64,000 nt of DNA from a virus: the IMG/VR virus record IMGVR_UViG_3300020020_000025; one strand, 5' to 3'. Made by a program: the position numbers and the translations under genes. The notes under the pieces are model-generated. The model searched no databases. It was not told the origin of the DNA and saw nothing but the letters and a program-made list of their open reading frames with translations. The number at the start of each line of letters is the position of its first letter. Position 1 is the stretch's first letter. Below are positions 1,570-56,807 of this stretch, piece by piece.

Positions 1570-1634
1570 GCCGGGGATGACATCGGCCGCCCGAGGGTGT
1601 ATGGTGGAATTGGGAAGCAGAAGGAGAGAAGGAA

Positions 1635-2322: not shown

Positions 2323-2570
2323 GACCCAAGTTTGATTGGACAGTCAATCTTGGGCATCTTCTGATCTTGTTGGGGCTAGTTATCAGCGGAGTATCAGTGT
2401 ATACCGCTACGATGGTAAGGATGTCTACCTACGAACATCGGTCTTCAGTGGTTGAGCAGGCCCAACGGCATCAAGAGAACCAGAGTAACAGCATCCTAAA
2501 TCACTTATATACCCTGCAGCGAGATGTCGCAGTCATGAAGGATCGTATGGACAGAGCAACGACAAAATGA
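2319..2570 (+). CDS. Small membrane protein (single TM plus coiled coil)
   Basis: Start reassigned to ATG 2319 (ATGA overlap); FDWTVNLGHLLILLGLVISGVSVY TM segment. Confidence 0.6.
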   Translation: MRPKFDWTVNLGHLLILLGLVISGVSVYTATMVRMSTYEHRSSVVEQAQRHQENQSNSILNHLYTLQRDVAVMKDRMDRATTK

Positions 2571-2953
2571 GTGTAGGATATAAGATCGCCAGGAATCCTG
2601 GGGACTATAGTCGGGCTCATGCCTTGATGCGTTCGGAAGGCTTCGCCAAGCAGAGGCTTAGCTTTCCGACCCTATTAGCATTGGATGAGGGGGTTGTTGG
2701 AGTTATTGGGACGAATATTACTAATAATATGATCTTAGCTGGTCCGCTCGTGATTAAGTCGGACCGCCGACGTATCGTGACCGCCATTCGGATGGTAGAA
2801 ATGTACGAAGTGGCGATGAAAGGTCTAGGCATCAAGACCTTTATCTTCGGGGTCGATCAAGGTAGCTTCTTGGAGAAGCTGATCGAGCGGTACGGATATC
2901 TGCCTCCATATGCGGAGGAAGAGGGCAAGAAGTTCTATATTAGGAGACTATGA
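2567..2953 (+). CDS. GNAT-fold acetyltransferase-like virion-module protein
   Basis: alpha/beta pattern ending LEKLIERYGY; position just before ejection genes as in many podoviruses. Confidence 0.45.
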   Translation: MSVGYKIARNPGDYSRAHALMRSEGFAKQRLSFPTLLALDEGVVGVIGTNITNNMILAGPLVIKSDRRRIVTAIRMVEMYEVAMKGLGIKTFIFGVDQGSFLEKLIERYGYLPPYAEEEGKKFYIRRL

Positions 2954-3882
2954 TGGGTAGCAGCACTAATGTACCCCAGCCCTCAGCGGCTGAGCAGGAG
3001 CTGCAGAAGGCTCAAGCCGATCTGCTAGGAATGCAGAAGAAGATCGTTGAGCAGCAGCAGGCCCAAAATAAGATCCTGCTGCCCTTCCTTGCTGAGCAGG
3101 AGGGCTTCGATGTTGAGCTGGATGATGCAGGCAACATCAAGAGTATCAAGCGGAAGTTTGATCCTGATGAGGCCAAACGAAAGGAGTTGGAGAGTGGTTT
3201 TCTTGATCGGTCGCTCAAGGCTCTTAAGGGCGAACTCCCTGTTGATCCGGCCCTCGAGAGAAGCCTGGGGTCGAGCGAAGAAGCCTTACGGGAAAAACTA
3301 CAAGCCCAGTTTGGGGCAGGATATGAAACCTCCTCGCCAGCTATCGAAACACTCCAGCAGTTCCGCGAGAGCAGCGAAATTCTCCGCGAGGGAGCTAGGA
3401 CGGGACAGTTAACCCTATCGGAGCAGTTGGGCCTAACCAGGGAACAGCAGCGGCAATTCACACAGGGGGCACAGGCTGATGCCCTCCGAAATACTGCGAT
3501 AGGCGATCCCATGAGCTTTGCGGGGGCCTTTGGCCAGGTTGCAAGGGGATATGGGCAGGCTCAAGTTCCCTATATGCAGAACCGTCAGCTGCAGGCTCAA
3601 ATCAAGGGAGCTAACTCAGATCGCTTATATAAGCTATTAGGAGCTGGTATCAGTACTGCTGGTCAGATTGGATCAGCAGCTATCATGTTCTCTGACCCTG
3701 AACTGAAGGATGATATGATCCCAGTAGGCCTAACAAGGCAGGGATTTACGATCTATGAATATACTCTCAAGACCTCAGGTGAGCGAATGCTTGGAGTGCT
3801 GTCAACTGAGGTTGAACCCATGTTGCCTGAAGCGGTCTTACGCAGAGGCGATTGGGATGTCGTAGATTATGGAGCGCTCTAA
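2950..3882 (+). CDS. Pilot/DNA-ejection protein with C-terminal peptidase S74-type autocleaving chaperone domain
   Basis: Q/A-rich helical body; C-terminal FSDPELK...IYEY...GVLSTEV...PEAV...VDY. Confidence 0.65.
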   Translation: MMGSSTNVPQPSAAEQELQKAQADLLGMQKKIVEQQQAQNKILLPFLAEQEGFDVELDDAGNIKSIKRKFDPDEAKRKELESGFLDRSLKALKGELPVDPALERSLGSSEEALREKLQAQFGAGYETSSPAIETLQQFRESSEILREGARTGQLTLSEQLGLTREQQRQFTQGAQADALRNTAIGDPMSFAGAFGQVARGYGQAQVPYMQNRQLQAQIKGANSDRLYKLLGAGISTAGQIGSAAIMFSDPELKDDMIPVGLTRQGFTIYEYTLKTSGERMLGVLSTEVEPMLPEAVLRRGDWDVVDYGAL

Positions 3883-5774
3883 TGGGTGGATATCTCCCAG
3901 AGCCCGATGAATGGATGCAGCCTCAGCGCGAGCCTGAGGCCATACTACCGCAGCCACAGCAGCCTATCTCCAGGCAGCAGCAGGTAGCGGCAGCTTATCA
4001 ACAGAGCCAACAGGAAATTCAGCAAGCTCAAAGTGTCGCTGCTACGCGTGAAGAGGACCTAAACGTAGCACAGTACATGACCAAGATGCTTGATCCTACG
4101 GTGCCTAAGGCGGCTCGTCAATTTCTGTTCCGTGAGTTGTCCACGAGGATGGGCGTCGATCCTAAGGGTGAGACCTCACAGAACTTTGGCAAGATGCTTC
4201 TAGGCCTCGAGCCTGAGGCCCTTGAACGGTTGAATAGGGGCTATGCCGACAGGATTAAGAATGCCACTCCGGGCCAGATTAAGCAGATGACCCAGGCCGT
4301 CCTTCAAGGCGATGTATCGGGCATCGAGTTGATGAAGATGGCTAATGTACGAGTTGCCCAAGCTGGAGGTGGTGGTACTCCAGGTGTAATCCCGGCACAA
4401 CCGACGGCTCCTATCTCAGGCCCCCCTGGCGCACTTCCTCCCGCGCCAGGGACTACCCCTCCTGCGGCTGACCCTGCGGCGGCTGCAGGAGGGCCTCCCT
4501 CACCGTCAACGCGGCGGTATAAGGGCCAAGGTGAGACTATTCCGTTTCATCAACCTGTTGAGCCAGGCTTAGTTCGAGCCCTTGGTTATCAATTCGGCGA
4601 CCCTGTAAGGGTAAGTGATCTAGCGAAAGAGGGTATTACTGTTCCTCAAACACCCAAGGAACAGAACGATCTAATGAAGGCTATGGATGCCAATGCGTCA
4701 GCCACAGTCACAGTAGTAAAAGATGCAACTAGGTTACATCAGTTATTTAAGGGAAAGCCTGAAGTTCTTGGTCTTGTTGGAGCAACTGCAAGGACTGTGG
4801 ATCAAGCCATTGATCAAATGAAGGGTGTAATCCGCTCGGCAGGGGGTGATACATCCACCTTTGATCAGAATGATAAGGGATTTAGAGCCCTGATTGCACG
4901 TTCGGCTCAACGTGTATCAGATGTATACAAGAGTTCTGGAATTGAGCAGACTGCTGTTGACAGCGCAAGGCTGCAGGGAGCTGTTCTAGATATGGCCTAT
5001 TCAATGGCCAATGCTAAGGGAATCCCAGATAACCGCCTGACTAATAGAATGATCGCTCAGGAACTCAATACACTGGGGCAATCCCAATCGGTTGCTCAAT
5101 TTGAGGCAACTCTCAAGGAGGCGGTTGGCAGAGCACTTAGCAAATCTAGCAACGAAATAGCTGCTAGGGTTGGACGGCCTATGGACCCTAATCTAGGATT
5201 TGTCAATACACAAGACCTCGTCTTTATGGGCCAGAGTGATATTGCTTCCCCTGAACTGAAGAAGACTATCTTAGAAGAATCTAAGCGGCGTCTGTCGGGA
5301 GCTGCTGGTAAACCTATCAAGCGAGCAGAGCCCACTGTAGAAAGTGAGCAGCTATATACATCAGAGGAGGAGCGCCGGGAATCAGAGCGCAAGAAATCTG
5401 AGGAAAAGCGCCAACAAGAGGAACACGTATTAAAGAAGCGCCGGGATGTAAGAGCTGAAGAAGAGGGCGAGCGAGCTGAGGCTCGTATGGCCCGTACTGA
5501 GTTCGAGCAGAATCGCCGCTTCAACCTCGCCGAGAAGCGTGAGAGGCGCATGGAGGAACAGCACCGGCGCGACAAGATAGGAGCAGCCTTCAAGGAACTA
5601 GGTAAGATGATCGGAGAGGCTGGATCATCTGGTCGATCGATTGGAGCTGGAATTGGAGCTGGTGGAGGTGGAGGCGATCAGGATGCTGGAGCATTTAGGA
5701 TGACCCCAGCTCCTCGTAGGGCGCCGCCTAAACCAGTGGACGCCGAGCGGTATCAACGAAAGCCAGGTAAGTAG
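3882..5774 (+). CDS. Internal virion/ejection protein
   Basis: Likely start ATG 3882 (TAATG overlap); Q/A/P-rich, C-terminal coiled coil; in ejection cluster. Confidence 0.6.
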   Translation: MGGYLPEPDEWMQPQREPEAILPQPQQPISRQQQVAAAYQQSQQEIQQAQSVAATREEDLNVAQYMTKMLDPTVPKAARQFLFRELSTRMGVDPKGETSQNFGKMLLGLEPEALERLNRGYADRIKNATPGQIKQMTQAVLQGDVSGIELMKMANVRVAQAGGGGTPGVIPAQPTAPISGPPGALPPAPGTTPPAADPAAAAGGPPSPSTRRYKGQGETIPFHQPVEPGLVRALGYQFGDPVRVSDLAKEGITVPQTPKEQNDLMKAMDANASATVTVVKDATRLHQLFKGKPEVLGLVGATARTVDQAIDQMKGVIRSAGGDTSTFDQNDKGFRALIARSAQRVSDVYKSSGIEQTAVDSARLQGAVLDMAYSMANAKGIPDNRLTNRMIAQELNTLGQSQSVAQFEATLKEAVGRALSKSSNEIAARVGRPMDPNLGFVNTQDLVFMGQSDIASPELKKTILEESKRRLSGAAGKPIKRAEPTVESEQLYTSEEERRESERKKSEEKRQQEEHVLKKRRDVRAEEEGERAEARMARTEFEQNRRFNLAEKRERRMEEQHRRDKIGAAFKELGKMIGEAGSSGRSIGAGIGAGGGGGDQDAGAFRMTPAPRRAPPKPVDAERYQRKPGK

Positions 5775-8323
5775 TGGCAGATGATTTTGCCCTTGACGAT
5801 ATTGAGCCTCCAGGTACCACTGCGGAGGATGAGCTTAATCGCGTCCGCGAAGAAGCTATTCGCTTGGCAGCCAAAGCCGCTCAAGAATTAGCAGATGATC
5901 CTTCAGGTCCTCGCAGAAAACAGGCTGAGATCAGACCAACTCCTGAGAAGCGGGCAATTGTAGCTCCTTGGGGCATTCCTAAGGGCTCAACAGAACTCGA
6001 GCCGATGGTCCCTGAGATACTGCATGATCCATGGAACTTGTTCAATGAGATGGTTGATCTATTCTCGAAGGGTCATCGCGCTAGCGATCGGGAAGTTGTC
6101 GAGCGTTCGACCAAGCTGGCCGCCAATCTAGTTGGTGGTGGCATGGTCATGGAGACTGCTCAGCAGGCAGCAAAGAAAGGAGTTGTAAAGGCTGTTCAGG
6201 AAGTTGGTCACGGAGATATAAAATCTGCTTACAACCCTTATGACTTATCAAACTGGCCTGAAAGCAGTATTCATACACTAGATCATGGTTTCCTTAAAGA
6301 GATATCTGACATGGGTATGGCAATCAAGCATAATGAGGACCAAACTTGGACCGTAATTGGAAAGGGAGCTAAGACTGGCAATCCTCAAAAGGCTGAAAAG
6401 CTAGATTTTGACAATGAAGATGATTTGCTAGAACATCTAATTAAACTAAGGGAGGAGAAGGGCCAGGAGATGAAATCCTGGCACAAGGTACATAGCGAGC
6501 CCTATTTGCCTCCTAGCGAAGCTGTGAAGAAGGTAATGGACTCAGAATATGGCATTGGCATGTATGGACATGGTAAGGAGTGGCATGTCTGGGGTTGGGA
6601 ACCTCAGCCCAACGAGAAATACGCTAAATACATAGCTAAAGAATTTACTAATAAAGATGAGGCTACCAAGTTCTATGAGGAGATAAAGAAGAGTACTGAG
6701 CTAGCCAATGCTGAGAAAAAATTCTCCCACGAAGCCAAGAGAGAGGTCGAGACCTTTGGCAAGATGCTTAAGACTGAAAAGAAAATCTTAGAGGATGATA
6801 AATTTGGTCAATTAGCTTCAATTGGAATAGATAAAGAAACTTATGACGGTGTAAAGGCACTTGGCCTTGATATAGCCGTTTATGAGAATGGCGAATTTAG
6901 CTTGGTTGGAAAAGGAGCGATAGATGGATCATCTGCTTGGCAGTCGATGGTATTTGATGATACTGCCAAGCTTATAGATCATCTGACCAATGTTCAGCAC
7001 CTCAAAGATGGTCTTATAACTCAAGAAGAGCTTGTGAATAAGACTACAGGCGCTTCAGGAGGTCCCAGCCCTAAGGCCGTCTTTGGTTCTGGAGAGTTTG
7101 GTAAAAATGTCTATGGTAAATCTGCAGACGCTCCAGCTAGCAGCTACCAGCCAAAAGCCCTCTGGAAGGATGATAGCGCTGTTGAAGTTTATGGAACTAT
7201 GGAAGAAGCCATAGCTGCAGCTGGAAAGGGAGGTAAAGCTGATCCGCTAGCCCAGGGAGGTTATGCTGCTTACCAAGCGGATTATAAGGGATATGTCACA
7301 AAGGGCCAAGGTCCTGCCCCTGTAGCTCCAGTCGAGAAAAAGAAGATTTGGACCTATACTGAGATGGACGATAGATGGCCCTCCCTGGATAAGGTAATGC
7401 ACGTTACAGTTGATACAGGGAAGAAAAATCCTCATAGTATGACTCTTAAGGAACTACTTACCAAGATGGGTAAGCAGGGAGAGGAGATTGCTGACGTTAT
7501 AGACATGGCAGTCGGTGCTGGTATATCCAAGATCGAGGTGGGCGACATAAAGATGAATATAAATTTCTTTGAAAGCCACGATAAGCCGCTCCCTCCAGGG
7601 ATCTCATATCCTGGCTATATTAAGTCGGAGAAATTGCCAAGTGAAACGCAGATGCGTCTTTGGCCAAATGCCAAGGATATAGATACATTAGGAAATACGG
7701 ACAAGCATCCTGAAGGAGGACTCCTCGCTTATCATGGAACCAAAGTCGATAAGATATTCGAGAAAGGACAATTCGATCTAGCGCATTCTAATGATATAGG
7801 TCATCACTTTGGAACAAAGGAACAAGCAGGATCAATAATTGTAGGCGACAATCTTTGGAGTGACTCACTACCAAGAAGGATCATTCCTGTTCACATAGCT
7901 GTGAAGAATCCTCTTACATTACCAGATATGGGTGGTTGGCGGCCCTGGGATTTCCCTAGAGAACTTGCTGAAGTATTACCAGGCTATACCGAGAAAATGG
8001 AAAATAATCTATCTGCTAGATTAAATAAGGTCTCAGAGGTCTCAGAGGGAGATATAGGACGAAAGCAGTTTGATATCATTCGAGCGGAGATAGAGAAATT
8101 CGGCTATGACTCTATTCGCTATCTCAACTCAGTAGAGGGAGAGGGATGGTCCTACATCGTATGGCAGAAAAATAGAGTTCGGTCGGCTTCTAATCCTGAG
8201 CATATACTGTATGTCAGGACAGGACCAGGCGTACCGAACAGATATCAAGAGGAAGACGAGGATGGGCGGAATACCAATAGACGAGACCCTGATCTCTCAG
8301 CCGCAGCCCCAAGAAGTCCTTGA
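5774..8323 (+). CDS. Multidomain (polyvalent-type) virion protein with C-terminal ADP-ribosyltransferase-like domain
   Basis: YHGT...GHHFGTKEQA...PVHIAVKNP...GYDSIRYLNSVEG...SYIV; internal repeats; stop-start coupled within the ejection cluster. Confidence 0.6.
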   Translation: MADDFALDDIEPPGTTAEDELNRVREEAIRLAAKAAQELADDPSGPRRKQAEIRPTPEKRAIVAPWGIPKGSTELEPMVPEILHDPWNLFNEMVDLFSKGHRASDREVVERSTKLAANLVGGGMVMETAQQAAKKGVVKAVQEVGHGDIKSAYNPYDLSNWPESSIHTLDHGFLKEISDMGMAIKHNEDQTWTVIGKGAKTGNPQKAEKLDFDNEDDLLEHLIKLREEKGQEMKSWHKVHSEPYLPPSEAVKKVMDSEYGIGMYGHGKEWHVWGWEPQPNEKYAKYIAKEFTNKDEATKFYEEIKKSTELANAEKKFSHEAKREVETFGKMLKTEKKILEDDKFGQLASIGIDKETYDGVKALGLDIAVYENGEFSLVGKGAIDGSSAWQSMVFDDTAKLIDHLTNVQHLKDGLITQEELVNKTTGASGGPSPKAVFGSGEFGKNVYGKSADAPASSYQPKALWKDDSAVEVYGTMEEAIAAAGKGGKADPLAQGGYAAYQADYKGYVTKGQGPAPVAPVEKKKIWTYTEMDDRWPSLDKVMHVTVDTGKKNPHSMTLKELLTKMGKQGEEIADVIDMAVGAGISKIEVGDIKMNINFFESHDKPLPPGISYPGYIKSEKLPSETQMRLWPNAKDIDTLGNTDKHPEGGLLAYHGTKVDKIFEKGQFDLAHSNDIGHHFGTKEQAGSIIVGDNLWSDSLPRRIIPVHIAVKNPLTLPDMGGWRPWDFPRELAEVLPGYTEKMENNLSARLNKVSEVSEGDIGRKQFDIIRAEIEKFGYDSIRYLNSVEGEGWSYIVWQKNRVRSASNPEHILYVRTGPGVPNRYQEEDEDGRNTNRRDPDLSAAAPRSP

Positions 8324-10409
8324 AGGCGGTCTTGAGGAGAGTCAACATACCCTGACGGACGAGGAACGTCGCTCTCTTGAAGCCCTCGTTAAGCAGTTAG
8401 AGACTGATCCTAGCGTGGCAGGTTCTGTTCCCGGAGCCCCTGGCCCAAGTGCAGGACAGGTACCTCTCCAGGCCGGCCGCGAGATGCAACCAGCTACTTC
8501 CTCTGAGCCGCTTGATCCCCTAGGTATTCGAGGGGCAGCTGGCAACATGCCAGTTGAGAACATGAGCCCTGGCCGTGCTGCGCTGGCGCGCGCAGTGCAA
8601 GGATGGGGAGAGAGTGGCTCCGCCACCATTGGAGCGGCTCAGCAAGTAGGCAAGGAGTTCGTAGAGGATTTCCCCAAGACCTGGCAAGAGTTTGTCGAGA
8701 AGACACAGAAACCTGAGAACGTCCGTGCAATCCTCAAAGGCAGCATGGGAGCTGCCGGAGGAATGACTATGACCAGCCTAGGTCCTGGCGGCATCATGCT
8801 AGGAACCTATGCAGGGGCCACAGTCGGAGGATATCTAGCCAACGCTTACGAGGACATCATAGGTCATACACGGACTACAGGCGGAGATGCTAACACTGTC
8901 CAACGCCTTATCCAACCTACACTCGATGCCCAGTGGGATGCTGCTGTATCAGGATCAGTGTCGGCCCTACCCTACGCTACACCCGTTATGAAGGGATGGC
9001 TAGCTAGGATGCTCAGTCTGCCTCCCAACTCTCGGCAATTGGTCGAAGAGGCATCATCTCTAGGAGTAAATATTGGCGTAGCTAATGTCGCTAATGGAGG
9101 CGTTGGCAAGGGTGCAGTCAATGTCTTCGGCAGGATGCCCCTAATCGGTACATCAGCCCGCAAGGCCTCTGAGCGCCAGGGTAAGGCTATTGTTGAGGCC
9201 TACAATGATATGTTTGGCCAGCTCTCGAACCCAAACGCTACTACTGAGGTTGCAGAAACAGCCCTACTAGCTGCCAGGAATCGATTTGGTGAGTGGTCTA
9301 CTAAGGCCATGGGACGCTATAATCACGCCTTAAAAGTTGGGGAAGAGCAAGGAGCAGTGCTCTCGACGGACAAGGTGTTGAAGGCCACTGGTCAGGCGCT
9401 GCATGAGATGAGCACCAAGACTGGAAAGCTGTTAGGCGTTCCTCCTGCAGATATGAAAGTGTTTCTAAATGGAGTTGTTAAGAACCTAGATGACAAGATG
9501 TCCACCATGGACGCTAATAATATATTGATAGATTTGGAACGCCTTATGAGAAAGGCCGACAAATCGCACGGTGTTCATTATAGCAAGCTGGAGCAAGTTC
9601 AGAAGGCCCTTGAAGAAACTCTCAAGGGCTCGGACAATGTAGCAGCCAAGTTGCTAGTGAAAGCCCGATCAAACTTCCAGGAAGGCATTAAAGAGTTTGA
9701 GACTAGTATCTTCAAGAAGATGGTTGGGCAGGTTGATCGGAATATCTACGCCATCGGCAAGATCAAAAGCGGAACTATAACTGCCGATGATCTAATGGAA
9801 ACTGCTGCAAAAACCCACTCCGCTAGCGCTGTCAGGGAGTTACGGAATGCAGCAGGGGACGACGTCGTTAGAAACGTCGCCAGGGCCCGCTTGGATGATG
9901 CCTGGGTCAAAGCTACGGGGATTGAGCCAGGCACTCTTTTTGTTGGCCAGAAACTGTCCTTTGATGCCAAGCGCTTCACCGAAGCTCTAGGCCTCAACAA
10001 TCCTAATTCTCAGAAATACTTCACTATGAAGGAGATGCTTCGGGGCAGTGGTGTTGATATTGGAGATATTGAAAAGCTGGCGCGAGTAGGACAGGCCGTG
10101 ACTGCCGCGCCTATAGCCGACGCTTCGACATTCATGGCCCGCGCTGCCGTGCTGCGGGGGGCAGGCGGCGTTGCGGAGGCTGTACGAGGGGCGTTAACAA
10201 TGGGAGCAGGTGGTAGGACTGCCCAGAACATTGGCATGGTGCCCGCTATTGCAGGCCTCGTGATGATGCGCTGGGGCATCGGTGCCATGATGAAGCCCGG
10301 TCTCGTCAAGTTGGCGACCACGGCTATGGATGAGGCTATAGAACCAGCTGCCAGGGCAGCCGCACTAACGCAGATGACACTCCTACATCCTAGCCTATTC
10401 AACGAGTAA
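8262..10409 (+). CDS. Large internal virion/ejection protein
   Basis: A/G-rich helical protein; GAGG RBS before ATG 8262 (track start 8211 also possible). Confidence 0.6.
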   Translation: MGGIPIDETLISQPQPQEVLEGGLEESQHTLTDEERRSLEALVKQLETDPSVAGSVPGAPGPSAGQVPLQAGREMQPATSSEPLDPLGIRGAAGNMPVENMSPGRAALARAVQGWGESGSATIGAAQQVGKEFVEDFPKTWQEFVEKTQKPENVRAILKGSMGAAGGMTMTSLGPGGIMLGTYAGATVGGYLANAYEDIIGHTRTTGGDANTVQRLIQPTLDAQWDAAVSGSVSALPYATPVMKGWLARMLSLPPNSRQLVEEASSLGVNIGVANVANGGVGKGAVNVFGRMPLIGTSARKASERQGKAIVEAYNDMFGQLSNPNATTEVAETALLAARNRFGEWSTKAMGRYNHALKVGEEQGAVLSTDKVLKATGQALHEMSTKTGKLLGVPPADMKVFLNGVVKNLDDKMSTMDANNILIDLERLMRKADKSHGVHYSKLEQVQKALEETLKGSDNVAAKLLVKARSNFQEGIKEFETSIFKKMVGQVDRNIYAIGKIKSGTITADDLMETAAKTHSASAVRELRNAAGDDVVRNVARARLDDAWVKATGIEPGTLFVGQKLSFDAKRFTEALGLNNPNSQKYFTMKEMLRGSGVDIGDIEKLARVGQAVTAAPIADASTFMARAAVLRGAGGVAEAVRGALTMGAGGRTAQNIGMVPAIAGLVMMRWGIGAMMKPGLVKLATTAMDEAIEPAARAAALTQMTLLHPSLFNE

Positions 10410-10413
10410 TCCA

Positions 10414-11607
10414 ATGGTAATGCGTCGAGTTCAAGCTGGCACTATTCAACAGCGCAAACGAGAGGCGCTGCAGGAGTTCTATAAAAAGCAGGCCGATGAT
10501 ATAGAGGCATATAAGAAAAGTAGGGATTCCAGCACTCAGGCCGAGATATACAGGGAGCACGGTGATCCTGATTTCCGAGTTGGTAAGTGGAGCCAGCCGC
10601 GTCTAAAAGATGTGCTGCCCCAGCGGGAAGAAAAGGAAAACGTAGACAGGTATCCTCGATATGAAGGAGGTGTCCAAGGTATATCTTCCCGCTCCGATGA
10701 TCTTCCTGACTTTAAGGGACCTCGTCCCGAGGGTTACTGGGGCAAAGATAAGTCATGGAGCCAACTAAGCGATCACCAGAAGGCCGCTGCAATGGCCTTG
10801 CTGGAGGCCGGTCTTGACAAGAATGGGAGACCCGATATCGTAGCTGCCAAGAACGCCCTGGGCGCTATGATTAACCGTGCAGACAAAGAGGGCCAGGAGC
10901 TAGGACGCCATGTCAGCGGTAAGATATATCAGCCTACTATTGAGCCTGATCAGTATGCCCGGTTGCAGCATCTTACAAGACTGCCCGCCTTTCGAGACCT
11001 CACCGACATCGCGGAGCAGCGTGCGACCGGCCAAGTAGAGGACTGGGTAGGCGGGGCTACCCATTTTCTAGCTCATCCAAAGGAGATGCTTGCCCTTGAG
11101 GCCAAGGATCCAGCGAAGTATAAGAACTGGGGGCCTCGAGGCAAGAACTGGACGGGCTATGATGAGGCTACAGGGAGATACAAGAATGAGGTCCTGTCGG
11201 ACAGCAGCCACGTCTTCCTGGCTCCTGAGGGTAAGCATAGTGCTTTTGCTGGGCAGCCTTCTGCTTTTGACTATGGTACAACCGCCGAGCTATCCCAGCC
11301 AGATCGCCTCCAGGTTCCATTTCCTGAAGAGCAGCCCTCACCTGCTCCTGCGCCTCAAGTTCCCGAGCTGCCCAAGCTGTCCGAGTTTCTGGCTCAACAA
11401 CAGAGACAAATGCCCCAAGCCCAGCCCAACGATCTGATGGACATTCAATCTAAACCTATCAGTCTGCCAGGGCTTGGAGATGAGCTTCCTGGTCAGGATG
11501 ATAGAGCGTTTGCCATTCTGCCTTCTCAGCAGCGTCGGAGGCCAGGCGGGGGCGCTCCGACGCTACCAGTGCCGCGTAGACCTCCGGGATTTCTTCCGGA
11601 GTTTTAA
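10414..11607 (+). CDS. Virion-associated cell-wall hydrolase (SleB/Hydrolase_2-like)
   Basis: ALLEAG...ALGAMINR...YQP...DWVGGATHF...HVF motif order; last gene of late operon. Confidence 0.55.
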   Translation: MVMRRVQAGTIQQRKREALQEFYKKQADDIEAYKKSRDSSTQAEIYREHGDPDFRVGKWSQPRLKDVLPQREEKENVDRYPRYEGGVQGISSRSDDLPDFKGPRPEGYWGKDKSWSQLSDHQKAAAMALLEAGLDKNGRPDIVAAKNALGAMINRADKEGQELGRHVSGKIYQPTIEPDQYARLQHLTRLPAFRDLTDIAEQRATGQVEDWVGGATHFLAHPKEMLALEAKDPAKYKNWGPRGKNWTGYDEATGRYKNEVLSDSSHVFLAPEGKHSAFAGQPSAFDYGTTAELSQPDRLQVPFPEEQPSPAPAPQVPELPKLSEFLAQQQRQMPQAQPNDLMDIQSKPISLPGLGDELPGQDDRAFAILPSQQRRRPGGGAPTLPVPRRPPGFLPEF

Positions 11608-12427
11608 CGGAGTGCATGTCACCCCATGAGATGCCAACCTTGATATCCACGTTTAGGCGAAAGGTATGTCCACCGTAGTTAAGTTCGGGCCTCATATATT
11701 CTACCATTTGGTGGCAGAAGTGAGTGAGGTCCCCCCAATTGTCAGTGGGATAGAGGGCCATAAGCGAGTCATGGACTTGCGCCCCAAGGTTCATTCGCTG
11801 GAAGGGCTCGGAGGTGTCCTCAAAAGCGGCACACATGGCCTCCAGAACTATGTCCACCACGGTAGATTGCGGTACGAAGGAGTAGGCCTTGTCGAACAAG
11901 TCCGAGCCCCATTCCCCAAGGAGTCTAACCTTGCGGCCGAAGCAGTTGGTAAGCGTGCGGTCGTTTTCCTTCATCGTTTGTCGAGTGGCTTCCCACCACT
12001 TTGGGATGCCAGGATAGGCAACTTCAGTGTAAGCCGCTACAATAGGGGCCGCCTCACTCTCCATGATTTCCCACTCAAGAGCAGCTCGCCTATATTTCAT
12101 GCCATAGTTGAGCCCGTGGTTAGACTTCTTGCCCGACTGACGAATGGACATCGATCGAGGAAGGAAGATTGCATCTTTCTCATGCAATTCAATCAGCTCG
12201 GGCAACTTTTCCCTTCGCAGTTGAGCGATCAGGCCGGGGTCGGTGGCGTTTCCGAGTAGCTTGTGATCGGCTATTACTAGAGGCTCGGGAACGTCTGTGA
12301 TGAGGGCCCCCGTCACTATGTGCGGACTCTTCCCGCTTTCCACCACTTCTATCATGTTCGGGTCGTTCGCTAGATAAGCTACCACTACCCACTCTGCCCC
12401 GGCCAGATCGAACTCTACCAGTATCAT
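11459..12427 (-). CDS. polA: DNA polymerase family A, C-terminal catalytic half (motifs A, B, C)
   Basis: Motif A EFDLAGAEW at the N-terminus; motif B KKSNHGLNYG; motif C QVHDSL; AAGGGG RBS. Confidence 0.9.
   Translation of the reverse strand: MILVEFDLAGAEWVVVAYLANDPNMIEVVESGKSPHIVTGALITDVPEPLVIADHKLLGNATDPGLIAQLRREKLPELIELHEKDAIFLPRSMSIRQSGKKSNHGLNYGMKYRRAALEWEIMESEAAPIVAAYTEVAYPGIPKWWEATRQTMKENDRTLTNCFGRKVRLLGEWGSDLFDKAYSFVPQSTVVDIVLEAMCAAFEDTSEPFQRMNLGAQVHDSLMALYPTDNWGDLTHFCHQMVEYMRPELNYGGHTFRLNVDIKVGISWGDMHSVKTPEEIPEVYAALVASERPRLASDAAEKAEWQTLYHPDQEAHLQALAD
11582..11605 (+). terminator. Intrinsic terminator at end of late operon
   Basis: CTCCGGGA-TTTC-TTCCGGAG then TTTT, overlapping the last codons of 10414-11607. 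Confidence 0.6.
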
Positions 12428-12686
12428 TACAGCCCCTTAGTCTATTGGCCACCAGTTTGGCATATCCCGCTATATCATCCCAGTTGTCAACGTGATCCTG
12501 ACTGCCCGTGGTGATGCGAGATATCTTACTAGCTACCTGGTCCAGGCCCTCCTTCATGTCCTCCGACAGACAATGATATCCGGGAGTACTCCGAATGAGG
12601 AACTTGAGGCCCTGAGCTACAGTGGCATTATCGATAAAGGGGCCGTAGACTTGGCCCCTTTGCTCCAGCAGCTTATCGGTTTCCAT
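12189..12686 (-). CDS. DUF6378-like phage protein with out-of-frame tail overlapping the Pol C-half
   Basis: EQRGQVYG...KISRI...HVDNWDDIAGYA; conserved part ends near 12430. Confidence 0.6.
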   Translation of the reverse strand: METDKLLEQRGQVYGPFIDNATVAQGLKFLIRSTPGYHCLSEDMKEGLDQVASKISRITTGSQDHVDNWDDIAGYAKLVANRLRGCNDTGRVRSGRGRVGSGSLSSERPEHDRSGGKREESAHSDGGPHHRRSRASSNSRSQATRKRHRPRPDRSTAKGKVARAD

Positions 12687-13587
12687 TGGCGTTCTCCACG
12701 TCCAACAGCATTTTTTCTACTGTCTCAGCGTCGAAGGTTCCCGAGGGCTCACCGATGGCTACCCGTTGATAAATCTCAAGAGCTACCAAAGTCTTAGGTC
12801 CAAGGTGACCGTCAACTACCAGGCCAGGCCGATGTCCCAGTAGATTAAGAGTAGCCTGGCCCCAGCGAACCCACTCGTAAGTCCCTGGCTTGACTGCTCC
12901 AATTAGCCCACCTACCCACTGATCTGCCAGTTCCTCATAGGTGCCTCTAAAGGAGTTGACATCGAGATTACTGTCATCCACTCCCTTAATTTTTGGGGCA
13001 TCAGGTCCATGCTGGCCATCAGTGAACTGCCACAGCCAGTAACTGTCCCAGCTAGCCTGAGTATGAGGCTGAGGTCCGTACTGAGCGTGCCACAATCTGC
13101 ATGTGCCAAGATACTGGTCAACTTGGTTGCCCAACTGATCCTTGATAAGATGGCCCGAGTATAGCACGGGCAGCCTACCAGTTTTGGCCTCGAGCAGCTT
13201 AATGAATTGGATAGCATCAGCTGCACTGCATCGCTCGTCCTCATGATCGAGAGCCAGCAATGTACCAGGCTCAGGATCAGCATGTCTCAGGAAATGCTCG
13301 ACTTGGGCCGTAATATCCCCTGGCCTGAAGAAATGATAGGCGCCCCACAACAGGCCTACACTCTTTGCTAGGCTTCGGCGGGATGCATACGTAGGATCGA
13401 CGTAGCTAGAACCTTCAGTGGCCTTGTGGATAATGCCTCTAATACCGCTATAATATATGTCCTGAAAGGACGTTACTGTATTATGGTGGCTCAGATCGAG
13501 CACCATCGGGTTAAGCTTCTCGCCCTTAGGCTGAGCAGGTTCTTTGGTCTTAGATTTGGTCGTGGGCATGTCTACTTTTCCTCTCAT
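12673..13587 (-). CDS. Endolysin: GH25 muramidase plus C-terminal peptidoglycan-binding domain
   Basis: VLDLSHHN, HKATEG, GAYHFF, LDHE (DxE), WQFTD; C-terminal VDGHLGPKT PG-binding motif. Confidence 0.88.
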   Translation of the reverse strand: MRGKVDMPTTKSKTKEPAQPKGEKLNPMVLDLSHHNTVTSFQDIYYSGIRGIIHKATEGSSYVDPTYASRRSLAKSVGLLWGAYHFFRPGDITAQVEHFLRHADPEPGTLLALDHEDERCSAADAIQFIKLLEAKTGRLPVLYSGHLIKDQLGNQVDQYLGTCRLWHAQYGPQPHTQASWDSYWLWQFTDGQHGPDAPKIKGVDDSNLDVNSFRGTYEELADQWVGGLIGAVKPGTYEWVRWGQATLNLLGHRPGLVVDGHLGPKTLVALEIYQRVAIGEPSGTFDAETVEKMLLDVENANGNR

Positions 13588-13717
13588 CCCGTAGATAAGT
13601 CATCAGTTTCCGTCTCTGTCTGTACGTCTTCTCGTAGTTCTTCTCCTGGTTCTTGTACTTTGGCCTCCTTAACTTCGCCAGTAGGCGATCTCGCTCCGTT
13701 CGTATGCGCTTGGGCAT
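13550..13717 (-). CDS. Possible 55-aa basic protein overlapping the acidic tail of the Pol N-half
   Basis: AGAAGGA RBS then ATG CCC AAG; K/R-rich. Confidence 0.35.
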   Translation of the reverse strand: MPKRIRTERDRLLAKLRRPKYKNQEKNYEKTYRQRRKLMTYLRDERKSRHAHDQI

Positions 13718-15362
13718 CTTTCCTTCTCGCCACAATAAAGCCTTTGAACTGAGGATGAAGGTTCTGCAGGTTCATTCCCTTATTGAAGATCGTCTGTGAC
13801 GATGACAGTCGTCCTGTCCATGTTCCTCGAGGATTCCAGCTACATCGAAGCATCATGTCGGGATCAAGCTCGACCTCGAGATATGTCCCTTTGAGCTTTC
13901 GGAGAGATCGAACTTCCTGTGTTAGCTTGGCCTCCTTGGCCCCAGGCCCGCCCTTGCGGACGATCCGAGACATGGCTTTGTCATCAGTGGTGATACCGCC
14001 TCTTGCCTTAGTGTAGGCCTTAAGGCCCAGTGTCTCATAGAAGTACTTGGCGCACTGGGCAGGCGACGAGACGTTGAAATCCCATTCAGCGGCTTCCCGG
14101 AGTTCAGCCTCCTTAGCAGCCAATTCCTGTTCGATTTGGGCCTTCGTAGCCCCGAGGCCTTCCAGATCCACTTCTAGACCACGAGCCGACATATACGTAA
14201 GCGGGCCGGCCAATCTGACGGTTCTGTTGTAAGTGGGCCAATAGCCTCCAGCTGTCATTTCCTCCGATAATACGTCCCACGCTTCTAGCGCTACACATGC
14301 GTCTCGGCCACAGTATCGCTGAAACTGCTCCCACTCGATGTTGGGGTTCTTCCATATCTTGCCATCATCCTTCCAGTAAGGCTCCCGTGTATGCACGCTC
14401 GCGATAAAGTCCAGACCTTTCCTAAAATCAGGATACAGGACGTGCTGGGCAATCATAGGATCGCCAAGTTTGCCCTTCGTGTGGATATGATTCTTGTTAA
14501 ACAGGTATGGTGCATCAAAGCCCACCAGGTTCTGGTTGATCTTCTCGATCTCAGGATCACTCATCAAGGCCGCATAGTTCTGCCATACCCTAATCTCATC
14601 ATCTTCTTCCCAATAGGGCACCGTGCCTGGCCACTGCATATCCCCCACGAGGGGAACAGTCATGGCCTCTTCTTTGTCGCACGAGAGACTAAAGCAGCTA
14701 ATCTGCTCATTAACGACTTCAAGATCAGTCGCTACGCGACCGACCTCTCGGCACTTATGGATATACTGGTAGAAATCGTAGTATGTTGGCCTGACATGCA
14801 GAGTCCGCTTTGGCAACAGCAGTTCGGGACTATCCAGTTCGCCCTGGATCTTCTTCATGTCCCCTATTATCATGTAGCGCCACAAATAGACGCCGTGGAT
14901 TGTTGCTGCTGGATGGATAGTCGGAATGTACTTTTTCTTGACTCGATCGCTCCATAAGGGGCTGCCTCGCCACTTCATGATGGGCTTCTTGTGATCGTCC
15001 ATCAGCAGTTCCATAGCCTGAGTCCCCATGCTCAAGATGGCATTGCACTTCGAGGCCATGATCCGACGTAATGTAGGAACAGCGGCATCCAGGCCATATG
15101 CAGTAAAACCCTTGCTCACTGTCCATACCTGTTCTCCGTCCATAGAGAAATTTCCGGCCTTGTCCTTATCTATGGGCTTAGGCCAGATGTTGAGAATATA
15201 GCAATTGCGCCGTATAAGGCCAGCAGCGTGGAGACAGTCCATAAAAACGTCCCCACTAGGACCAACCAGCGGCCTACCAAGCCGCATCTCGACTCTTGCG
15301 GGAGCCTCCGCCAGGACCAAAAGGGGCGCATTGGGATCGCCTTCTTCAGAAGGAGTTGCCAT
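13584..15362 (-). CDS. polA: DNA polymerase family A, N-terminal half: UDG family 4-like domain, 3'-5' exonuclease, thumb and TGRLSS motif
   Basis: AEAP...GRPLVGPSG...HPAA; ExoI TDLEV, ExoII NLVGFD, ExoIII YCGRDA; TGRLSSS...NLQNL...FIVA. Confidence 0.9.
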   Translation of the reverse strand: MATPSEEGDPNAPLLVLAEAPARVEMRLGRPLVGPSGDVFMDCLHAAGLIRRNCYILNIWPKPIDKDKAGNFSMDGEQVWTVSKGFTAYGLDAAVPTLRRIMASKCNAILSMGTQAMELLMDDHKKPIMKWRGSPLWSDRVKKKYIPTIHPAATIHGVYLWRYMIIGDMKKIQGELDSPELLLPKRTLHVRPTYYDFYQYIHKCREVGRVATDLEVVNEQISCFSLSCDKEEAMTVPLVGDMQWPGTVPYWEEDDEIRVWQNYAALMSDPEIEKINQNLVGFDAPYLFNKNHIHTKGKLGDPMIAQHVLYPDFRKGLDFIASVHTREPYWKDDGKIWKNPNIEWEQFQRYCGRDACVALEAWDVLSEEMTAGGYWPTYNRTVRLAGPLTYMSARGLEVDLEGLGATKAQIEQELAAKEAELREAAEWDFNVSSPAQCAKYFYETLGLKAYTKARGGITTDDKAMSRIVRKGGPGAKEAKLTQEVRSLRKLKGTYLEVELDPDMMLRCSWNPRGTWTGRLSSSQTIFNKGMNLQNLHPQFKGFIVARRKDAQAHTNGARSPTGEVKEAKVQEPGEELREDVQTETETDDLSTG

Positions 15363-15882
15363 CTTCGATTTCCTTTAGAAGGATAGCTATATCTCCAGCT
15401 CCCAACTTGTCCAGAGGAGAGTTAGGTTTTAATATATACTTACCTCGCGAAGATAATGGAATACCATTCGATTGATCTTCTCTAACTTCTTCCATCGATT
15501 CCTCTACAATATTAGCTTTTCCATCATCCCTAAAACCTCGGCTTATCTCGGCTAGATAATATTCATACAAGGGCAAGGTGCCTCGAACGTTGCCATATCT
15601 GTCAGCTAATACTACCATAAAACTATAACCAAAGTCAAGCTCGTCAAGGCGGACATGCAAATTCATATATGCCTCTAATTTCTCGACGCTAAGAGGACTA
15701 GTATCCTCTATCTCAAACACTAGAATATTACCATGCTCATGATCTACATAGTATCCATCTGGAAGATAAGATCCAAACAGATGCTCCATTAAAAGATTTC
15801 CTAGAGTTTTGCGAAAGTTCTTTCTTTCAAGTTTTGGAAACTTGATTTTTAGAGCTTCAAAAGCTCTGGCTTCTAACCTCAC
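15346..15882 (-). CDS. PD-(D/E)XK-like nuclease, AT-rich insertion
   Basis: LPDGYYVD...LVFEIED; four 60-nt lines hand-counted at 32-38% GC versus 62% in an adjacent line. Confidence 0.5.
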   Translation of the reverse strand: MRLEARAFEALKIKFPKLERKNFRKTLGNLLMEHLFGSYLPDGYYVDHEHGNILVFEIEDTSPLSVEKLEAYMNLHVRLDELDFGYSFMVVLADRYGNVRGTLPLYEYYLAEISRGFRDDGKANIVEESMEEVREDQSNGIPLSSRGKYILKPNSPLDKLGAGDIAILLKEIEDGNSF

Positions 15883-16079
15883 TTCTTTTGTCCTCCTTGT
15901 CTGATGCAGCGGATGAGCTCTATGGAGAGCTCGTTTGGAACTTTCTTGGCCATATCCTTCAGCTGGAGCGAAGTCTCCTGACAGGTCCGCATGTCCCTAA
16001 AGTGAATGAGTATGGTCTTCTGCCATATCATCACTGGGACGCCGAACTTCACGACGATATATAGAGTCACAAAGTCCAT
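15879..16079 (-). CDS. Hypothetical protein
   Basis: Start reassigned to ATG 16079 (TAATG overlap); coupled to downstream gene. Confidence 0.55.
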   Translation of the reverse strand: MDFVTLYIVVKFGVPVMIWQKTILIHFRDMRTCQETSLQLKDMAKKVPNELSIELIRCIRQGGQKK

Positions 16080-16342
16080 TACTCTGCGGTCCTTAAGGTG
16101 TGCGACATAGCGCCCATCTTGCATCGGGTGCAGAAGCGCTCGCCGCCGTTCTCTATCTCCCGCCAGCCCTCCCAATTGTGTTCGCAGGGACCCTCTGGAC
16201 AGGCGCAGTAACAGGCATTCCAATCGAAGTTGTGATGGAGAACGCCCTTGATGTTCATTTTCTTGGCAACCTCTTCCAGTTCTTCACGAACCTTGATGTT
16301 GCGTTCCTTGCGAAGGGCTTCAAAGTCAGGTTTTCCGGCCAT
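16079..16342 (-). CDS. Small Cys-rich (Zn-binding) protein
   Basis: CYCAC..GPCEH and CTRC; AAGGAG RBS. Confidence 0.65.
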   Translation of the reverse strand: MAGKPDFEALRKERNIKVREELEEVAKKMNIKGVLHHNFDWNACYCACPEGPCEHNWEGWREIENGGERFCTRCKMGAMSHTLRTAE

Positions 16343-17627
16343 ACTCTTTCTCCTTGTCTTCCGTTATGCGCTTGAGGAAACTCTCCTTATGATCGTCCGA
16401 GAGGTCCCAGCCTATACCTGTGTGTTGGAGGCGATAGGCTGCCCGCAATGTCACCCCTGAGCCCAAGAAGGGGATTAGGATATGACTGCCGGGATCGAGG
16501 CACAGATTGAGTATCTCCTCCATAAGGACCAAGGGCTTCTCAGTGGGATGATCCTTCTTGGCCAGTGCTGGATAGTTGAAGACGTTGCCTCGTCCCTGTC
16601 GAGGTAGTTTGGGCTGGCCCTTGCGGGCCAAGAAGAATGGTTCATAAGCTGAGCCCAAGGTCGTCTCAGGAGCCGCTGTCTGACCTCCCATTTCGCCCTT
16701 GACCCAGACAGCCGGTATATCAGGCACGCCGAAGCCTACGTCACGCAAGGTTGTAAGAACCATGTGGTGCCAAGACATGCCGTACCAGAACACCGCAAAG
16801 GCGTTAGGTCGAAGACGATCGTAGACAAGAGTGCATAACTGCCTAAAAGCGACTGGGAAACCCTTGTTATCCCACTCGAAATACTGGTCCATTGGACTTC
16901 CATCGGTGTTCCTCGATTTGCGCTTATCTAGATCAACGCCATAAGGAGGATCAACCTCAGCGAAGTGAAAGAGATCACCTTTCATCTGGGTCATCTCTTG
17001 CATGGCATCACCTATTAGATAATGATCGCTGGCATAGTCGACAGCCCGCTTGATATGGTCAGGCACTAGATCTCGTGCCCGCTTTAGAGCAACCTTTTCC
17101 TCCAGCTTCTTTACGTCCTTCCATGCAGCATCTTCCGTTTCCATTTCCTCAAGGGCAAGTTCAGGAGCCTCCTCCATTGTCTTAGCAATTTCAAGGGCCC
17201 TATGAGTATTGCTCTTATCTCTCCCTACAAGAAGAGCATGTTTCTCCTTTGTCCATCCCTTGGGATTGGTCGTAGGTTCCCATTCCCCATATTGAGCTAT
17301 CTTCAGGTTCCATATCTTCAATTCTAGTTTAGCTCTTTCGTGCCATTCAAGATCTTTCCGAGCTACATTTTCAATCAACTCAATTTCAAGGCTATTCGCT
17401 TCGCCATTTATTGGACGTACTATAGCCTTAATAGTGTCTAGCCCAAGCAGTCGATGAGCGAGATACCGACGTTCACCGGCCACCAACTTAAGATCAGTAT
17501 CTAGCGTAATAGGTTGAATAAGGCCATGCTGCTTGATGGCTATTGCTAGACCTTCGATATCTCCCTTATCCTCGCGTGCTCGGTCTTTGACCTTTATTTG
17601 GTCAAGCCTGATCTCCTGTACCTGCAT
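16326..17627 (-). CDS. ParB-N domain / DNA methyltransferase (N6-A or N4-C, beta class) fusion
   Basis: GLIQPI...LVAGERR, ENVARKDL; DPPY motif IV; HPTEKP; PFLGSG motif I. Confidence 0.85.
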   Translation of the reverse strand: MQVQEIRLDQIKVKDRAREDKGDIEGLAIAIKQHGLIQPITLDTDLKLVAGERRYLAHRLLGLDTIKAIVRPINGEANSLEIELIENVARKDLEWHERAKLELKIWNLKIAQYGEWEPTTNPKGWTKEKHALLVGRDKSNTHRALEIAKTMEEAPELALEEMETEDAAWKDVKKLEEKVALKRARDLVPDHIKRAVDYASDHYLIGDAMQEMTQMKGDLFHFAEVDPPYGVDLDKRKSRNTDGSPMDQYFEWDNKGFPVAFRQLCTLVYDRLRPNAFAVFWYGMSWHHMVLTTLRDVGFGVPDIPAVWVKGEMGGQTAAPETTLGSAYEPFFLARKGQPKLPRQGRGNVFNYPALAKKDHPTEKPLVLMEEILNLCLDPGSHILIPFLGSGVTLRAAYRLQHTGIGWDLSDDHKESFLKRITEDKEKEYGRKT

Positions 17628-24252: not shown

Positions 24253-24305
24253 GGCCATCGTCAGTCACCGCATGACGGTGAGAGCCCCTAGCGGGGCTTT
24301 CGGCC
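24253..24305 (-). ncRNA. Hammerhead ribozyme, type II permutation
   Basis: GGCC-GAAA-GCCCC(GCUA)GGGGC-UC^UCACCG(UCAUG)CGGUGA-CUGACGA-U-GGCC; complete core, stems I/II/III of 6/4/6 bp. Confidence 0.8.
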
Positions 24306-24652
24306 TACCCTCGTAATGCCACAGCTCGGTCTACCCTCGTTACTTCAAGCGACCCATCAGGCTGCACGACAGCCAAGATCGCACGCTCGTAGAACAGAAG
24401 CTTCTCATCCCTCAGTTCCGCCTTAGCCAACGGAAACAAGGGAAAATCGCCAGGATATAGCAATACATCATCCCTTATCGTGAAGTTGCGCATGGGGAAG
24501 GATCCCCTACGATGATTATAGTTATCGTTCAGTTGCTCCTTCAGTTGCTCCTTTGCGGGACGAGGATCATCCAGATGGAAGAACCCAGGCAACAAGCCTA
24601 GATGTTCCATAGTCATACCGGGATGCAGCAGTTTCCATTGAGGGCTCATCAT
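24305..24652 (-). CDS. Conserved phage hypothetical protein
   Basis: AAGGGAG RBS before ATG 24652; WKLLHP...DDPRPAKEQ...YPGD...LRDE...QPDGS pattern familiar from alphaproteobacterial phages. Confidence 0.65.
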   Translation of the reverse strand: MMSPQWKLLHPGMTMEHLGLLPGFFHLDDPRPAKEQLKEQLNDNYNHRRGSFPMRNFTIRDDVLLYPGDFPLFPLAKAELRDEKLLFYERAILAVVQPDGSLEVTRVDRAVALRG

Positions 24653-24707: not shown

Positions 24708-24974
24708 CTATTGCAGTCGAGCCTTCTGTGACAGACGGTAACGCTTGGATGCCGCAGCTCGACATTGACGGCACTCCAGACGCCCGTTACTGCGCCGATA
24801 GGCATTGACGCCCTCAACCCTGTGTCCACGGTGACACAGGCGGCCCCGGCGTAGAGATGCCCCGGAGCTGGCTACGAACTCCATGTCCTCCTTGGAGGCC
24901 CCGACATGGAACTCGGGATGGGGTGATGGCTCTGGGGATGGAGAGAACCATGATGTCAGTAGCATGTTAAGCAT
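24708..24974 (-). CDS. Small Zn-finger protein
   Basis: CHRGH...ECRQC; AAGGAGG RBS. Confidence 0.6.
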   Translation of the reverse strand: MLNMLLTSWFSPSPEPSPHPEFHVGASKEDMEFVASSGASLRRGRLCHRGHRVEGVNAYRRSNGRLECRQCRAAASKRYRLSQKARLQ

Positions 24975-38350: not shown

Positions 38351-38624
38351 TAGGGACCATAACCATGAGTTGATGGAGCGGGCCAAGGAGGCGTCGCTCA
38401 CTCATTCGGTGGTCATTCCCTTCGTCAACGACAAGATTACCCAGCACGTACAGATGATGGTAGCACTGTATAGGGGTGGGAAGTACACACACGATCAGCT
38501 ATTGGGGTTAGTTGCCGAGATTGCGGCCCTTATGGCACTAGTTAGCGATCTCGAAGCGCAGGTGAGACAGGGCGATATAGCCGCAGAAAGGGAGTTCAGA
38601 GATGCCCCGCAAACCCAAAGATAA
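38343..38624 (+). CDS. Hypothetical head-module protein
   Basis: GGAG RBS; helical; precedes scaffold. Confidence 0.6.
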   Translation: MVNRDHNHELMERAKEASLTHSVVIPFVNDKITQHVQMMVALYRGGKYTHDQLLGLVAEIAALMALVSDLEAQVRQGDIAAEREFRDAPQTQR

Positions 38625-39312
38625 GGCCGATGCCGATCTAATCGGTGGTTTTCCTCAGGATGGCCAAGTCGTTGATACTGATCCCCCAGAGCCGAAACCT
38701 AATGAGGATGAGCCTGACGAGGATGAAGATGATGAGCCTGTAGATCAGGTCGCTGAGCTTCAGCGTCAGATGGACGAGATGAAGCGAACGCATGACAAGG
38801 AGATCGCTGAGCTGCGGAGAGCGACACCTCCTGTCGAACCCAAGACCAAAAAGGATGAGCCTGAGCCCACAGACTGGGATAATCTACTTTTTACGAAGCC
38901 CAAAGACGCTGTAGCGCAGATCAAGAAAGAAGCTAAGGAAGAAGTTCAACGCGAGATGCGGGCGGAGTACCAACGGGACCAGGGCACTCGGAAGTTCTGG
39001 GCCGACTTTTATACGTCCAACCCTGATCTGAAAGATGATGATGATTTGGTGCAGCTTGTTTTGTCAGGGAGCATGAGTGAACTGGCAAATGTTCCCGTTA
39101 AACAAGCAATCAAACGCCTTGGGGACTTGACGAGGGATCGCATTCTCCGATATGCCGGTGGGAAGCCCCGAGGGGGTAAGCGCGCGATGGTTGAGGGCAG
39201 CAATCCTCCTCGCCAACGGACGCGGGAACCCGAGGTGGCTGAGGTTACTAGTCTGAGTGAGATTATTCGGGCTAGGAAGGAACGACGGCACAAGAAGGCT
39301 AGTGCTGCCTAA
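38602..39312 (+). CDS. Capsid scaffolding protein
   Basis: Acidic disordered N-terminus, coiled coil, basic C-terminus; directly upstream of capsid gene. Confidence 0.75.
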   Translation: MPRKPKDKADADLIGGFPQDGQVVDTDPPEPKPNEDEPDEDEDDEPVDQVAELQRQMDEMKRTHDKEIAELRRATPPVEPKTKKDEPEPTDWDNLLFTKPKDAVAQIKKEAKEEVQREMRAEYQRDQGTRKFWADFYTSNPDLKDDDDLVQLVLSGSMSELANVPVKQAIKRLGDLTRDRILRYAGGKPRGGKRAMVEGSNPPRQRTREPEVAEVTSLSEIIRARKERRHKKASAA

Positions 39313-47963: not shown

Positions 47964-48028
47964 GCCGGGGATGACATCGGCCGCCCGAGGGTGTATGGTG
48001 GAATTGGGAAGCAGAAGGAGAGAAGGAA

Positions 48029-56803: not shown

Positions 56804-56807
56804 TCCA

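Follow-up and report, generated by a model that had tools for sequence, protein, structure and literature searches.

An intergenic type II hammerhead ribozyme motif flanked by small genes in an uncultured soil phage, and its membership in a large phage-borne family

The window analysed here, a stretch of 64,000 nucleotides, repeats itself exactly: positions 46395–64000 are identical to positions 1–17606. The window is therefore a wrapped circular or terminally redundant genome or contig of 46,394 bp that fills 64 kb, and features in the first 17.6 kb occur twice. The genome is phage-like and belongs to an uncultured soil phage. In a sequencing-run search, matches to the window sequence came from soil DNA metagenomes only, with none among RNA runs, and a blastn comparison of the locus with 50,697 phage records returned no match, no GenBank phage resembling it. 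The locus lies in a minus-strand block that is also rich in small genes and comprises the following features:

27806–26292, minus strand: D5-type primase/helicase, in the block around the ribozyme (PHROGs/Pfam)
26253–26225, minus strand: promoter-like site (TTGTAT, 17 nt, TGt-TATAAT), read by eye, about 1.9 kb upstream of the ribozyme
24652–24305, minus strand: upstream gene, 115 codons, starting at 24652 with the first of its two tandem ATGs (ORF list)
24305–24253, minus strand: complete type II hammerhead motif, 53 nt (descriptor scan, covariance model, fold)
24224–23979, minus strand: downstream gene, 81 aa, an orphan (ORF list)
20579–19410, minus strand: PD-(D/E)XK exonuclease, in the block around the ribozyme (PHROGs/Pfam)

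The database copy of the upstream protein (P0001) is 114 aa long, counted from the second ATG. The start codon of the downstream gene (ATG 24224) is preceded by AAGGAG at 24237–24232 and lies 28 nt past the end of the ribozyme. Its 81-aa product retrieved itself as the sole match among 5.8 billion proteins and no homologue from viral contigs, and PHROGs and Pfam searches of the flanking small proteins gave no match. The promoter-like site has a perfect extended −10, but its −35 falls below the threshold of the scan tool, and hence it was left uncalled. Two genes upstream of the ribozyme, an 88-aa ORF (24708–24974, minus strand) showed weak matches to HNH endonucleases (phrog_1492, E 5e-6; phrog_826); judged from these matches, it could encode a small or truncated protein of the homing-endonuclease kind, next to the rearranged junction described below.

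The hammerhead motif and its immediate flanks read, in the direction of transcription:

24306, minus strand: unpaired A directly 5' of stem II, equivalent to the 3' A of loop 2; candidate tertiary-contact residue (family conservation)
24305–24302, minus strand: 5' strand of stem II, GGCC, 11.4–11.1 (sequence)
24301–24299, minus strand: core G12 A13 A14 (sequence)
24298–24283, minus strand: stem III hairpin, 6 bp, A15.1 GCCCC / loop GCUA / GGGGC U16.1 (sequence; family covariation)
24282, minus strand: C17; predicted cut 3' of C17, between 24282 and 24281 (hammerhead rule)
24281–24265, minus strand: stem I hairpin, 6 bp, UCACCG / loop UCAUG / CGGUGA (sequence; family covariation)
24264–24258, minus strand: core C3 U4 G5 A6 C7 G8 A9, CUGACGA (sequence)
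24257, minus strand: extra U between A9 and G10.1 (sequence)
24256–24253, minus strand: 3' strand of stem II, GGCC, 10.1–10.4 (sequence)
24252, minus strand: purine (A) directly 3' of stem II, equivalent to the 5' R of loop 2 (family conservation)

The topology is that of type II, with stems I and III capped by loops and the 5' and 3' ends exiting via stem II. The arms of stem III pair 24298–24293 with 24288–24283, A15.1–U16.1 being A24298–U24283, and those of stem I pair 24281–24276 with 24270–24265. G10.1 does not directly follow A9, U24257 intervening, and the G10.1–C11.1 pair itself is intact. The cleavage-site nucleotide N17 is not G (C24282), and the cleavage triplet is CUC in the window versus mostly GUC in the family. 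An earlier reading of the locus made from the letters alone (hereafter the sequence-only reading) had assigned this core, 6-bp stems I and III, a 4-bp stem II with G10.1–C11.1, one extra U after A9, and a cut about 57 nt before the next ATG. Sequence and descriptor scan bear out the core and all three stems, the extra U is seen at 24257, and the coordinates of the cut (24282/24281) and of the ATG, 57 nt further on, are as proposed. According to the descriptor scan this is the sole type II site in the 46,394-bp genome, and none of 300 dinucleotide-preserving shuffles yielded a match, even with the stems relaxed to 4/3/4. The isolated 53-mer folds as a three-way junction (−26.4 kcal/mol, z −3.2).

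The motif has many relatives among viral contigs. A first IMG/VR pattern, GAAAGCCCC...GGGGCUH...CUGANGA, retrieved several evident type II hammerheads, three of which (L049, L055, L024) carry the same extra U. The pattern GGCCGAAA-N25-55-CTGANGATGGCC occurred at no fewer than 119 viral loci, compared with an estimated expectation of about 13, and among the matches listed 102/125, representing 96 distinct sequences, place stems I and III exactly in register. The same pattern applied to 596 Gb of bacterial genomes gave 121 matches against 134 expected by chance, proper stems being present in five; this internal control of specificity shows that the pattern does not by itself produce the stems and that the association of the group with phages is strong.

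Using 17 independent, gap-free phage members, with the window left out, we built the covariance model R1, which matched window positions 24310–24248 with 74.7 bits (E ~6e-20) over model positions 1–63 of 63 and without gaps; this score lies within the range of the 17 seeds (~70–80 bits). The next best R1 site in the genome (38620–38670, plus strand; 14.8 bits, E 0.03) combines a GGCC...UGGCC closure and a stem III-like hairpin with a broken core, CUCAGGA, has no stem I, and lies inside ORF 38602–39312. We rejected it as a second ribozyme, the core and stem I being absent and the site falling within an ORF; it is probably a chance match and possibly a decayed relic.

The resulting alignment, A3, holds 120 R1 hits from 100 sources, including 22 further elements that lie in the same contigs and were not pattern-selected, with up to four elements per contig (L068). 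Because A3 is fitted to R1, its pairing statistics carry that fit, of which the exact-register stem count given above is independent. In A3, 99.1% of cells form standard pairs, versus 68% in shuffles and 30–45% with the partners slid, and double-change cells number 484 versus 156 in shuffles. Compensatory changes occur at all six pairs of stem I and at five of the six pairs of stem III. Conservation of the core and of the extra U in pattern-selected members is by construction: the near-invariance of the G12-A13-A14 columns (118–120/120; G12 in 120/120) concerns letters that the search pattern required. N17, which the pattern left free, is C in 115/120 members, as in the window (C24282). The other contigs of the same phage (L003–L005) are identical over the aligned 161-nt region, which leaves the window's own copy without covariation. 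The hammerhead motif is real, and the window is a member of a large phage-borne type II hammerhead family with strongly covarying stems. The full-length R1 match and the compensatory variation of stems I and III across the family thus sustain the type II assignment of the sequence-only reading.

The gene setting of the element is typical of the family. By mechanical ORF calls, an upstream stop codon lies 0–5 nt from the ribozyme or overlaps it in 81/116 members, the window standing at −1, and a start codon with a Shine-Dalgarno-like motif follows at a median of 27 nt downstream, the window standing at 28. A start codon 16–30 nt downstream with a ribosome-binding site was called in 65/102 members, a range into which the window fits. 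Several contigs hold three or four hammerheads within 1–2 kb, each after a small gene (L068:9668-11453, L101, L102, L095 and L165), and elements with and without the extra U coexist in one contig.

Three further positions that formed no part of the search pattern are conserved in A3 and point to a tertiary contact. An A precedes the 5' GGCC in 118/120 members (A24306 in the window), loop I opens with U in 112/120 (U24275), and a purine follows the 3' GGCC in 106/120 (A24252). Published motifs are UNmYN for loop 1 and RNnA for loop 2, and in most natural hammerheads the 5' U of loop 1 is described as pairing with the 3' A of loop 2 (PMC2632901). The conserved A, U and purine fit UNmYN, RNnA and this U–A pair, and we infer that the group represents the classical loop-loop hammerhead in type II permutation, its 'loop 2' left open, rather than the pseudoknot form emphasised for type II (PMC3088659).

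The extra U after A9 is found in more than 100 natural members of the family, which were pattern-selected. Of the 22 siblings that were not, 15 have no insertion, five have U, one has A and one is without the core; with an insertion in 6/22 elements found without requiring it, this is a common natural variant. De la Pena and Flores, in 2001, reportedly saw a U at the extra core position raise the rate. The sequence-only reading had stated that an extra residue after A9 is tolerated in the hammerhead of CChMVd, and the summary in PMC1636495 agrees: an extra A between A9 and G10.1 is described there as tolerated, with a moderately lowered cleavage rate. The family data and this precedent suggest that the extra U in the window is a tolerated bulge.

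The junction with the upstream gene looks rearranged, and two copies of a 15-nt repeat mark it:

24340–24326, minus strand: repeat copy 1; native end of the upstream reading frame (codons T R V D R)
24314–24300, minus strand: repeat copy 2; supplies the stop codon, A24306, the 5' strand of stem II and G12–A13

The upstream ORF (24652–24305) reads through both copies and stops at TAG 24307–24305, the final G of which (G24305) is the first G of stem II, an overlap of 1 nt. Its frame is fixed by five homologues, all of which end in ...R(V/L/M)D. In these relatives the stop codon comes right after D; the window has CGA there and adds seven residues, RAVALRG, a lineage-specific C-terminal extension. 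With the stop at this TAG, positions 24306–24345 are coding sequence of the upstream gene and not ribozyme. The sequence-only reading was thus right to let the ribozyme begin at the upstream stop codon, but took for that codon an out-of-frame TAA at 24342–24340, and its 5' boundary at 24345 has to be given up. The duplication it had noticed at 24340 and 24314 is real, the two copies being 14/15 identical. Its extension of stem II by GGGUA/UAUCU can be drawn, with five pairs of which two are G–U, but would pair A24306, which is unpaired and near-invariant in the family, and finds no comparative support.

The 14/15 repeat is absent from the other family elements (118 tested), the next best case being 12/15 in two identical loci. 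In the synteny comparison, the loci encoding homologues of the upstream protein (L001, L006–L010) and the nearest primase relative (L002) were all without a hammerhead. At two of these loci (L007:2315-2380 and L010:998-1060), near-identical GC-rich hairpins with a CUCUCGUUAACGAGAG core follow the upstream-gene homologue in place of the ribozyme; this hairpin may be a shared intergenic element. The simplest reading of the repeat, the lost ancestral stop and the 7-residue extension would be a recombination scar that joined a cassette of ribozyme plus orphan gene to the upstream gene.

Taking these observations together, we consider the element to be a functional type II hammerhead self-cleaving ribozyme in a polycistronic replication/early transcript of the minus strand, with a probability of roughly 80%. 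Judged by its sequence, the ribozyme is very probably active, and its role is most likely to cut the polycistronic early transcript. Once the whole motif has been transcribed, stems I and II would dock side by side, the 5' U of pentaloop I (U24275) pairing with the unpaired A24306 and an R:A opposition forming at the open end of stem II; this U–A loop-loop contact would take the place that, in type II hammerheads of the Rfam kind, belongs to a pseudoknot of loop I with the 3' tail. Self-cleavage would follow, 3' of C24282. The upstream message would then have the stem III hairpin at its 3' end and carry a terminal 2',3'-cyclic phosphate. On the downstream message, stem I would start right at the 5'-OH end, leaving 57 nt ahead of the orphan 81-aa gene's ATG. 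By general rules of RNA decay in E. coli, both new ends should resist exonucleases and the 5'-end-dependent entry of RNase E, and the two cistrons would thereby be uncoupled, with independent expression and decay.

The predicted folding of the native context is a point against this reading, though not an unusual one in the family. Nearest-neighbour folding of 131 nt of native sequence keeps stems I and III and replaces stem II by two competitor hairpins:

24321–24301, minus strand: predicted competitor hairpin in the upstream coding sequence, sequestering the 5' strand of stem II and G12 (ViennaRNA)
24259–24243, minus strand: predicted competitor hairpin GAUGGC/GCUAUC (MFE structures)

The first hairpin has a predicted energy of −7.4 kcal/mol and a pair probability of ~0.82 in the 131-nt context (ViennaRNA); the second would sequester G8, A9, the extra U and three bases of the 3' strand of stem II. 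In the same context, the hammerhead-constrained fold lies 4.2 kcal/mol above the MFE and the pair probability of stem II is 0.001. The family median is +2.6 kcal/mol above the MFE, and 32% of the members are as bad as the window or worse.

A different competing helix is suggested elsewhere in the family. The five bases 3' of stem II are RUCAG in 47/113 distinct A3 elements (loci L058–L176), a tail that the window does not have. The first base of RUCAG covaries perfectly with core position N7 (G with C in 37/37, A with U in 10/10), which implies a helix between tail and C3–N7 that would exclude the active core. About half of the RUCAG elements have a 5' flank without a matching CUGAY. The tail helix could, from its sequence, be an off-state or a post-cleavage lock, and such competition may have a biological use.

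These folds allow a reading in which cleavage is conditional, which we judge unlikely. The duplication-made hairpin 24321–24301 would hide the 5' strand of stem II and hairpin 24259–24243 the 3' strand, ribosomes on the upstream gene would melt the first, and translation of that gene would govern whether the downstream orphan message is processed. Both hairpins are indeed predicted, the 5' one would form before the 3' half of the motif is transcribed, the upstream stop codon overlaps stem II, and competing helices are a theme of the family, as the covariation of the RUCAG tail with N7 illustrates. However, ribosomes located at the stop codon would mask stem II themselves, and the family median also disfavours stem II, which suggests that the energy model under-rates the hammerhead fold. 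The duplication is moreover unique to this phage, hence there is no covariation on which the idea could be tested.

That the element is an inactive or very slow relic seems to us very unlikely. On this reading a cassette acquired by recombination would have lost its activity, which the extra U or the competitor pairings could explain, and would now serve at most as a stable pair of hairpins, blocking RNases or exonucleases for instance. The junction does look rearranged, with its 15-nt duplication, lost ancestral stop and 7-residue extension; no relative keeps the element at this position, and the extra A of CChMVd moderately lowers the cleavage rate according to the summary in PMC1636495. Decay would nevertheless be expected to strike first the catalytic and tertiary-contact positions, every one of which is intact, and the score of 74.7 bits sits among those of the seeds. 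The extra U, for its part, is widespread in the family and turns up also in elements whose detection did not depend on it.

Rfam is silent on the locus: with cmscan, the whole window gave no family at the gathering threshold, and the 301 nt around the site gave no hammerhead at E <= 10. The check with Rfam hammerhead models that the sequence-only reading had put forward therefore fails to recover the element. The same models gave no hammerhead call at gathering in 16 family loci that we scanned. RF02276 gives sibling elements 20–34 bits versus a cut-off of 37, whether or not they have the extra U; low scores of this phage subgroup were recorded at loci L065, L081, L102, L068, L101, L091 and L095. 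RF02276 models the pseudoknot subtype, in which an AGCC-type tail, lying behind a 2-bp stem II, forms the pseudoknot with loop I, and it is for this reason that it under-scores the whole group and misses the window. No loop I/3'-tail pseudoknot of at least 4 bp can be drawn by eye in the window, and no 4-mer of the tail complements loop I and its closing pairs. Since the siblings are under-scored too, the silence of Rfam is no argument against the motif.

A chance resemblance, in which core words happen to flank two GC-rich, perhaps terminator-like, intergenic hairpins, could appeal to this silence and to the plain GC-rich hairpin that follows the same gene at the homologous loci L007 and L010, but is close to refuted by the absence of any match in the 300 shuffles, by an estimated frequency of ~4e-13 per position for an all-Watson-Crick match this good, and by the full-length R1 match, which covers positions unused in finding the family. 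The terminator reading was itself discarded, there being no U-tract and no terminator-like site called on the minus strand.

A bolder synthesis, in our view rather unlikely as a whole, would make the element part of a distinct and abundant phage type II class outside current databases, characterised by a 4-bp stem II, a pentaloop I and an optional U after A9, with viroid-type U–A docking across an open 'loop 2' instead of a pseudoknot; on top of these features, a lineage-specific duplication of gene end and ribozyme arm would set an anti-ribozyme hairpin into the upstream coding sequence and make cleavage translation-dependent.

The element is one more clear and well-placed instance of the association between hammerheads and small phage genes. 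The Rfam type II model misses the window and more than 100 IMG/VR relatives, and annotation pipelines probably under-count phage ribozymes. With its conserved contact letters and natural U insertion, the compact 53-nt form is a handy substrate for studying pseudoknot-free type II docking, and it would also suit tests of how cleavage affects expression of the following gene.

The element shares its permuted topology and catalytic core with the type II hammerheads of bacteria, archaea and (pro)phages (Perreault et al. 2011, PMC3088659; RF02276), together with a GUC-type cleavage site, here the triplet CUC, and a location in phage transcripts flanked by small genes of low conservation, frequently with several ribozymes in one genome. 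In prophages with this gene-ribozyme-gene layout, tandem hammerheads cleave polycistronic RNAs both in vitro and in E. coli (PMC3088659), and three type II hammerheads cleave in Desulfovibrio (PMC8782182). Whereas the consensus of Perreault et al. and Rfam has a 2-bp stem II and a loop I/3'-tail pseudoknot of at least 4 bp, the window has a 4-bp stem II, a 5-nt loop I and no pseudoknot. The word CUGAYGAUGGCC has no match in the text files of the Perreault 2011 supplement.

In having one extra nucleotide at the same core position, the element resembles the CChMVd (+) hammerhead (De la Pena and Flores 2001, as summarised in PMC1636495). The extra residue of CChMVd is, in that summary, an A kept for its role in viroid folding, whereas that of the window is a U that recurs in the phage elements. 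The closest parallels in the putative tertiary contact are the classical viroid and satellite loop-loop hammerheads of type III (Dufour et al. 2009, PMC2632901): loop I of the window, UCAUG, fits UNmYN and resembles the UGGUG pentaloop of CarSV(−), and the open end of stem II presents a purine on its 5' side and an A on its 3' side, like RNnA. Unlike the classical type III forms, the window element is type II, with an unclosed 'loop 2' whose two ends run on into mRNA, and its contact is deduced from conservation. A 6-bp stem I and a 4-bp stem II would nonetheless bring the contact groups side by side, as in the classical loop-loop hammerheads.
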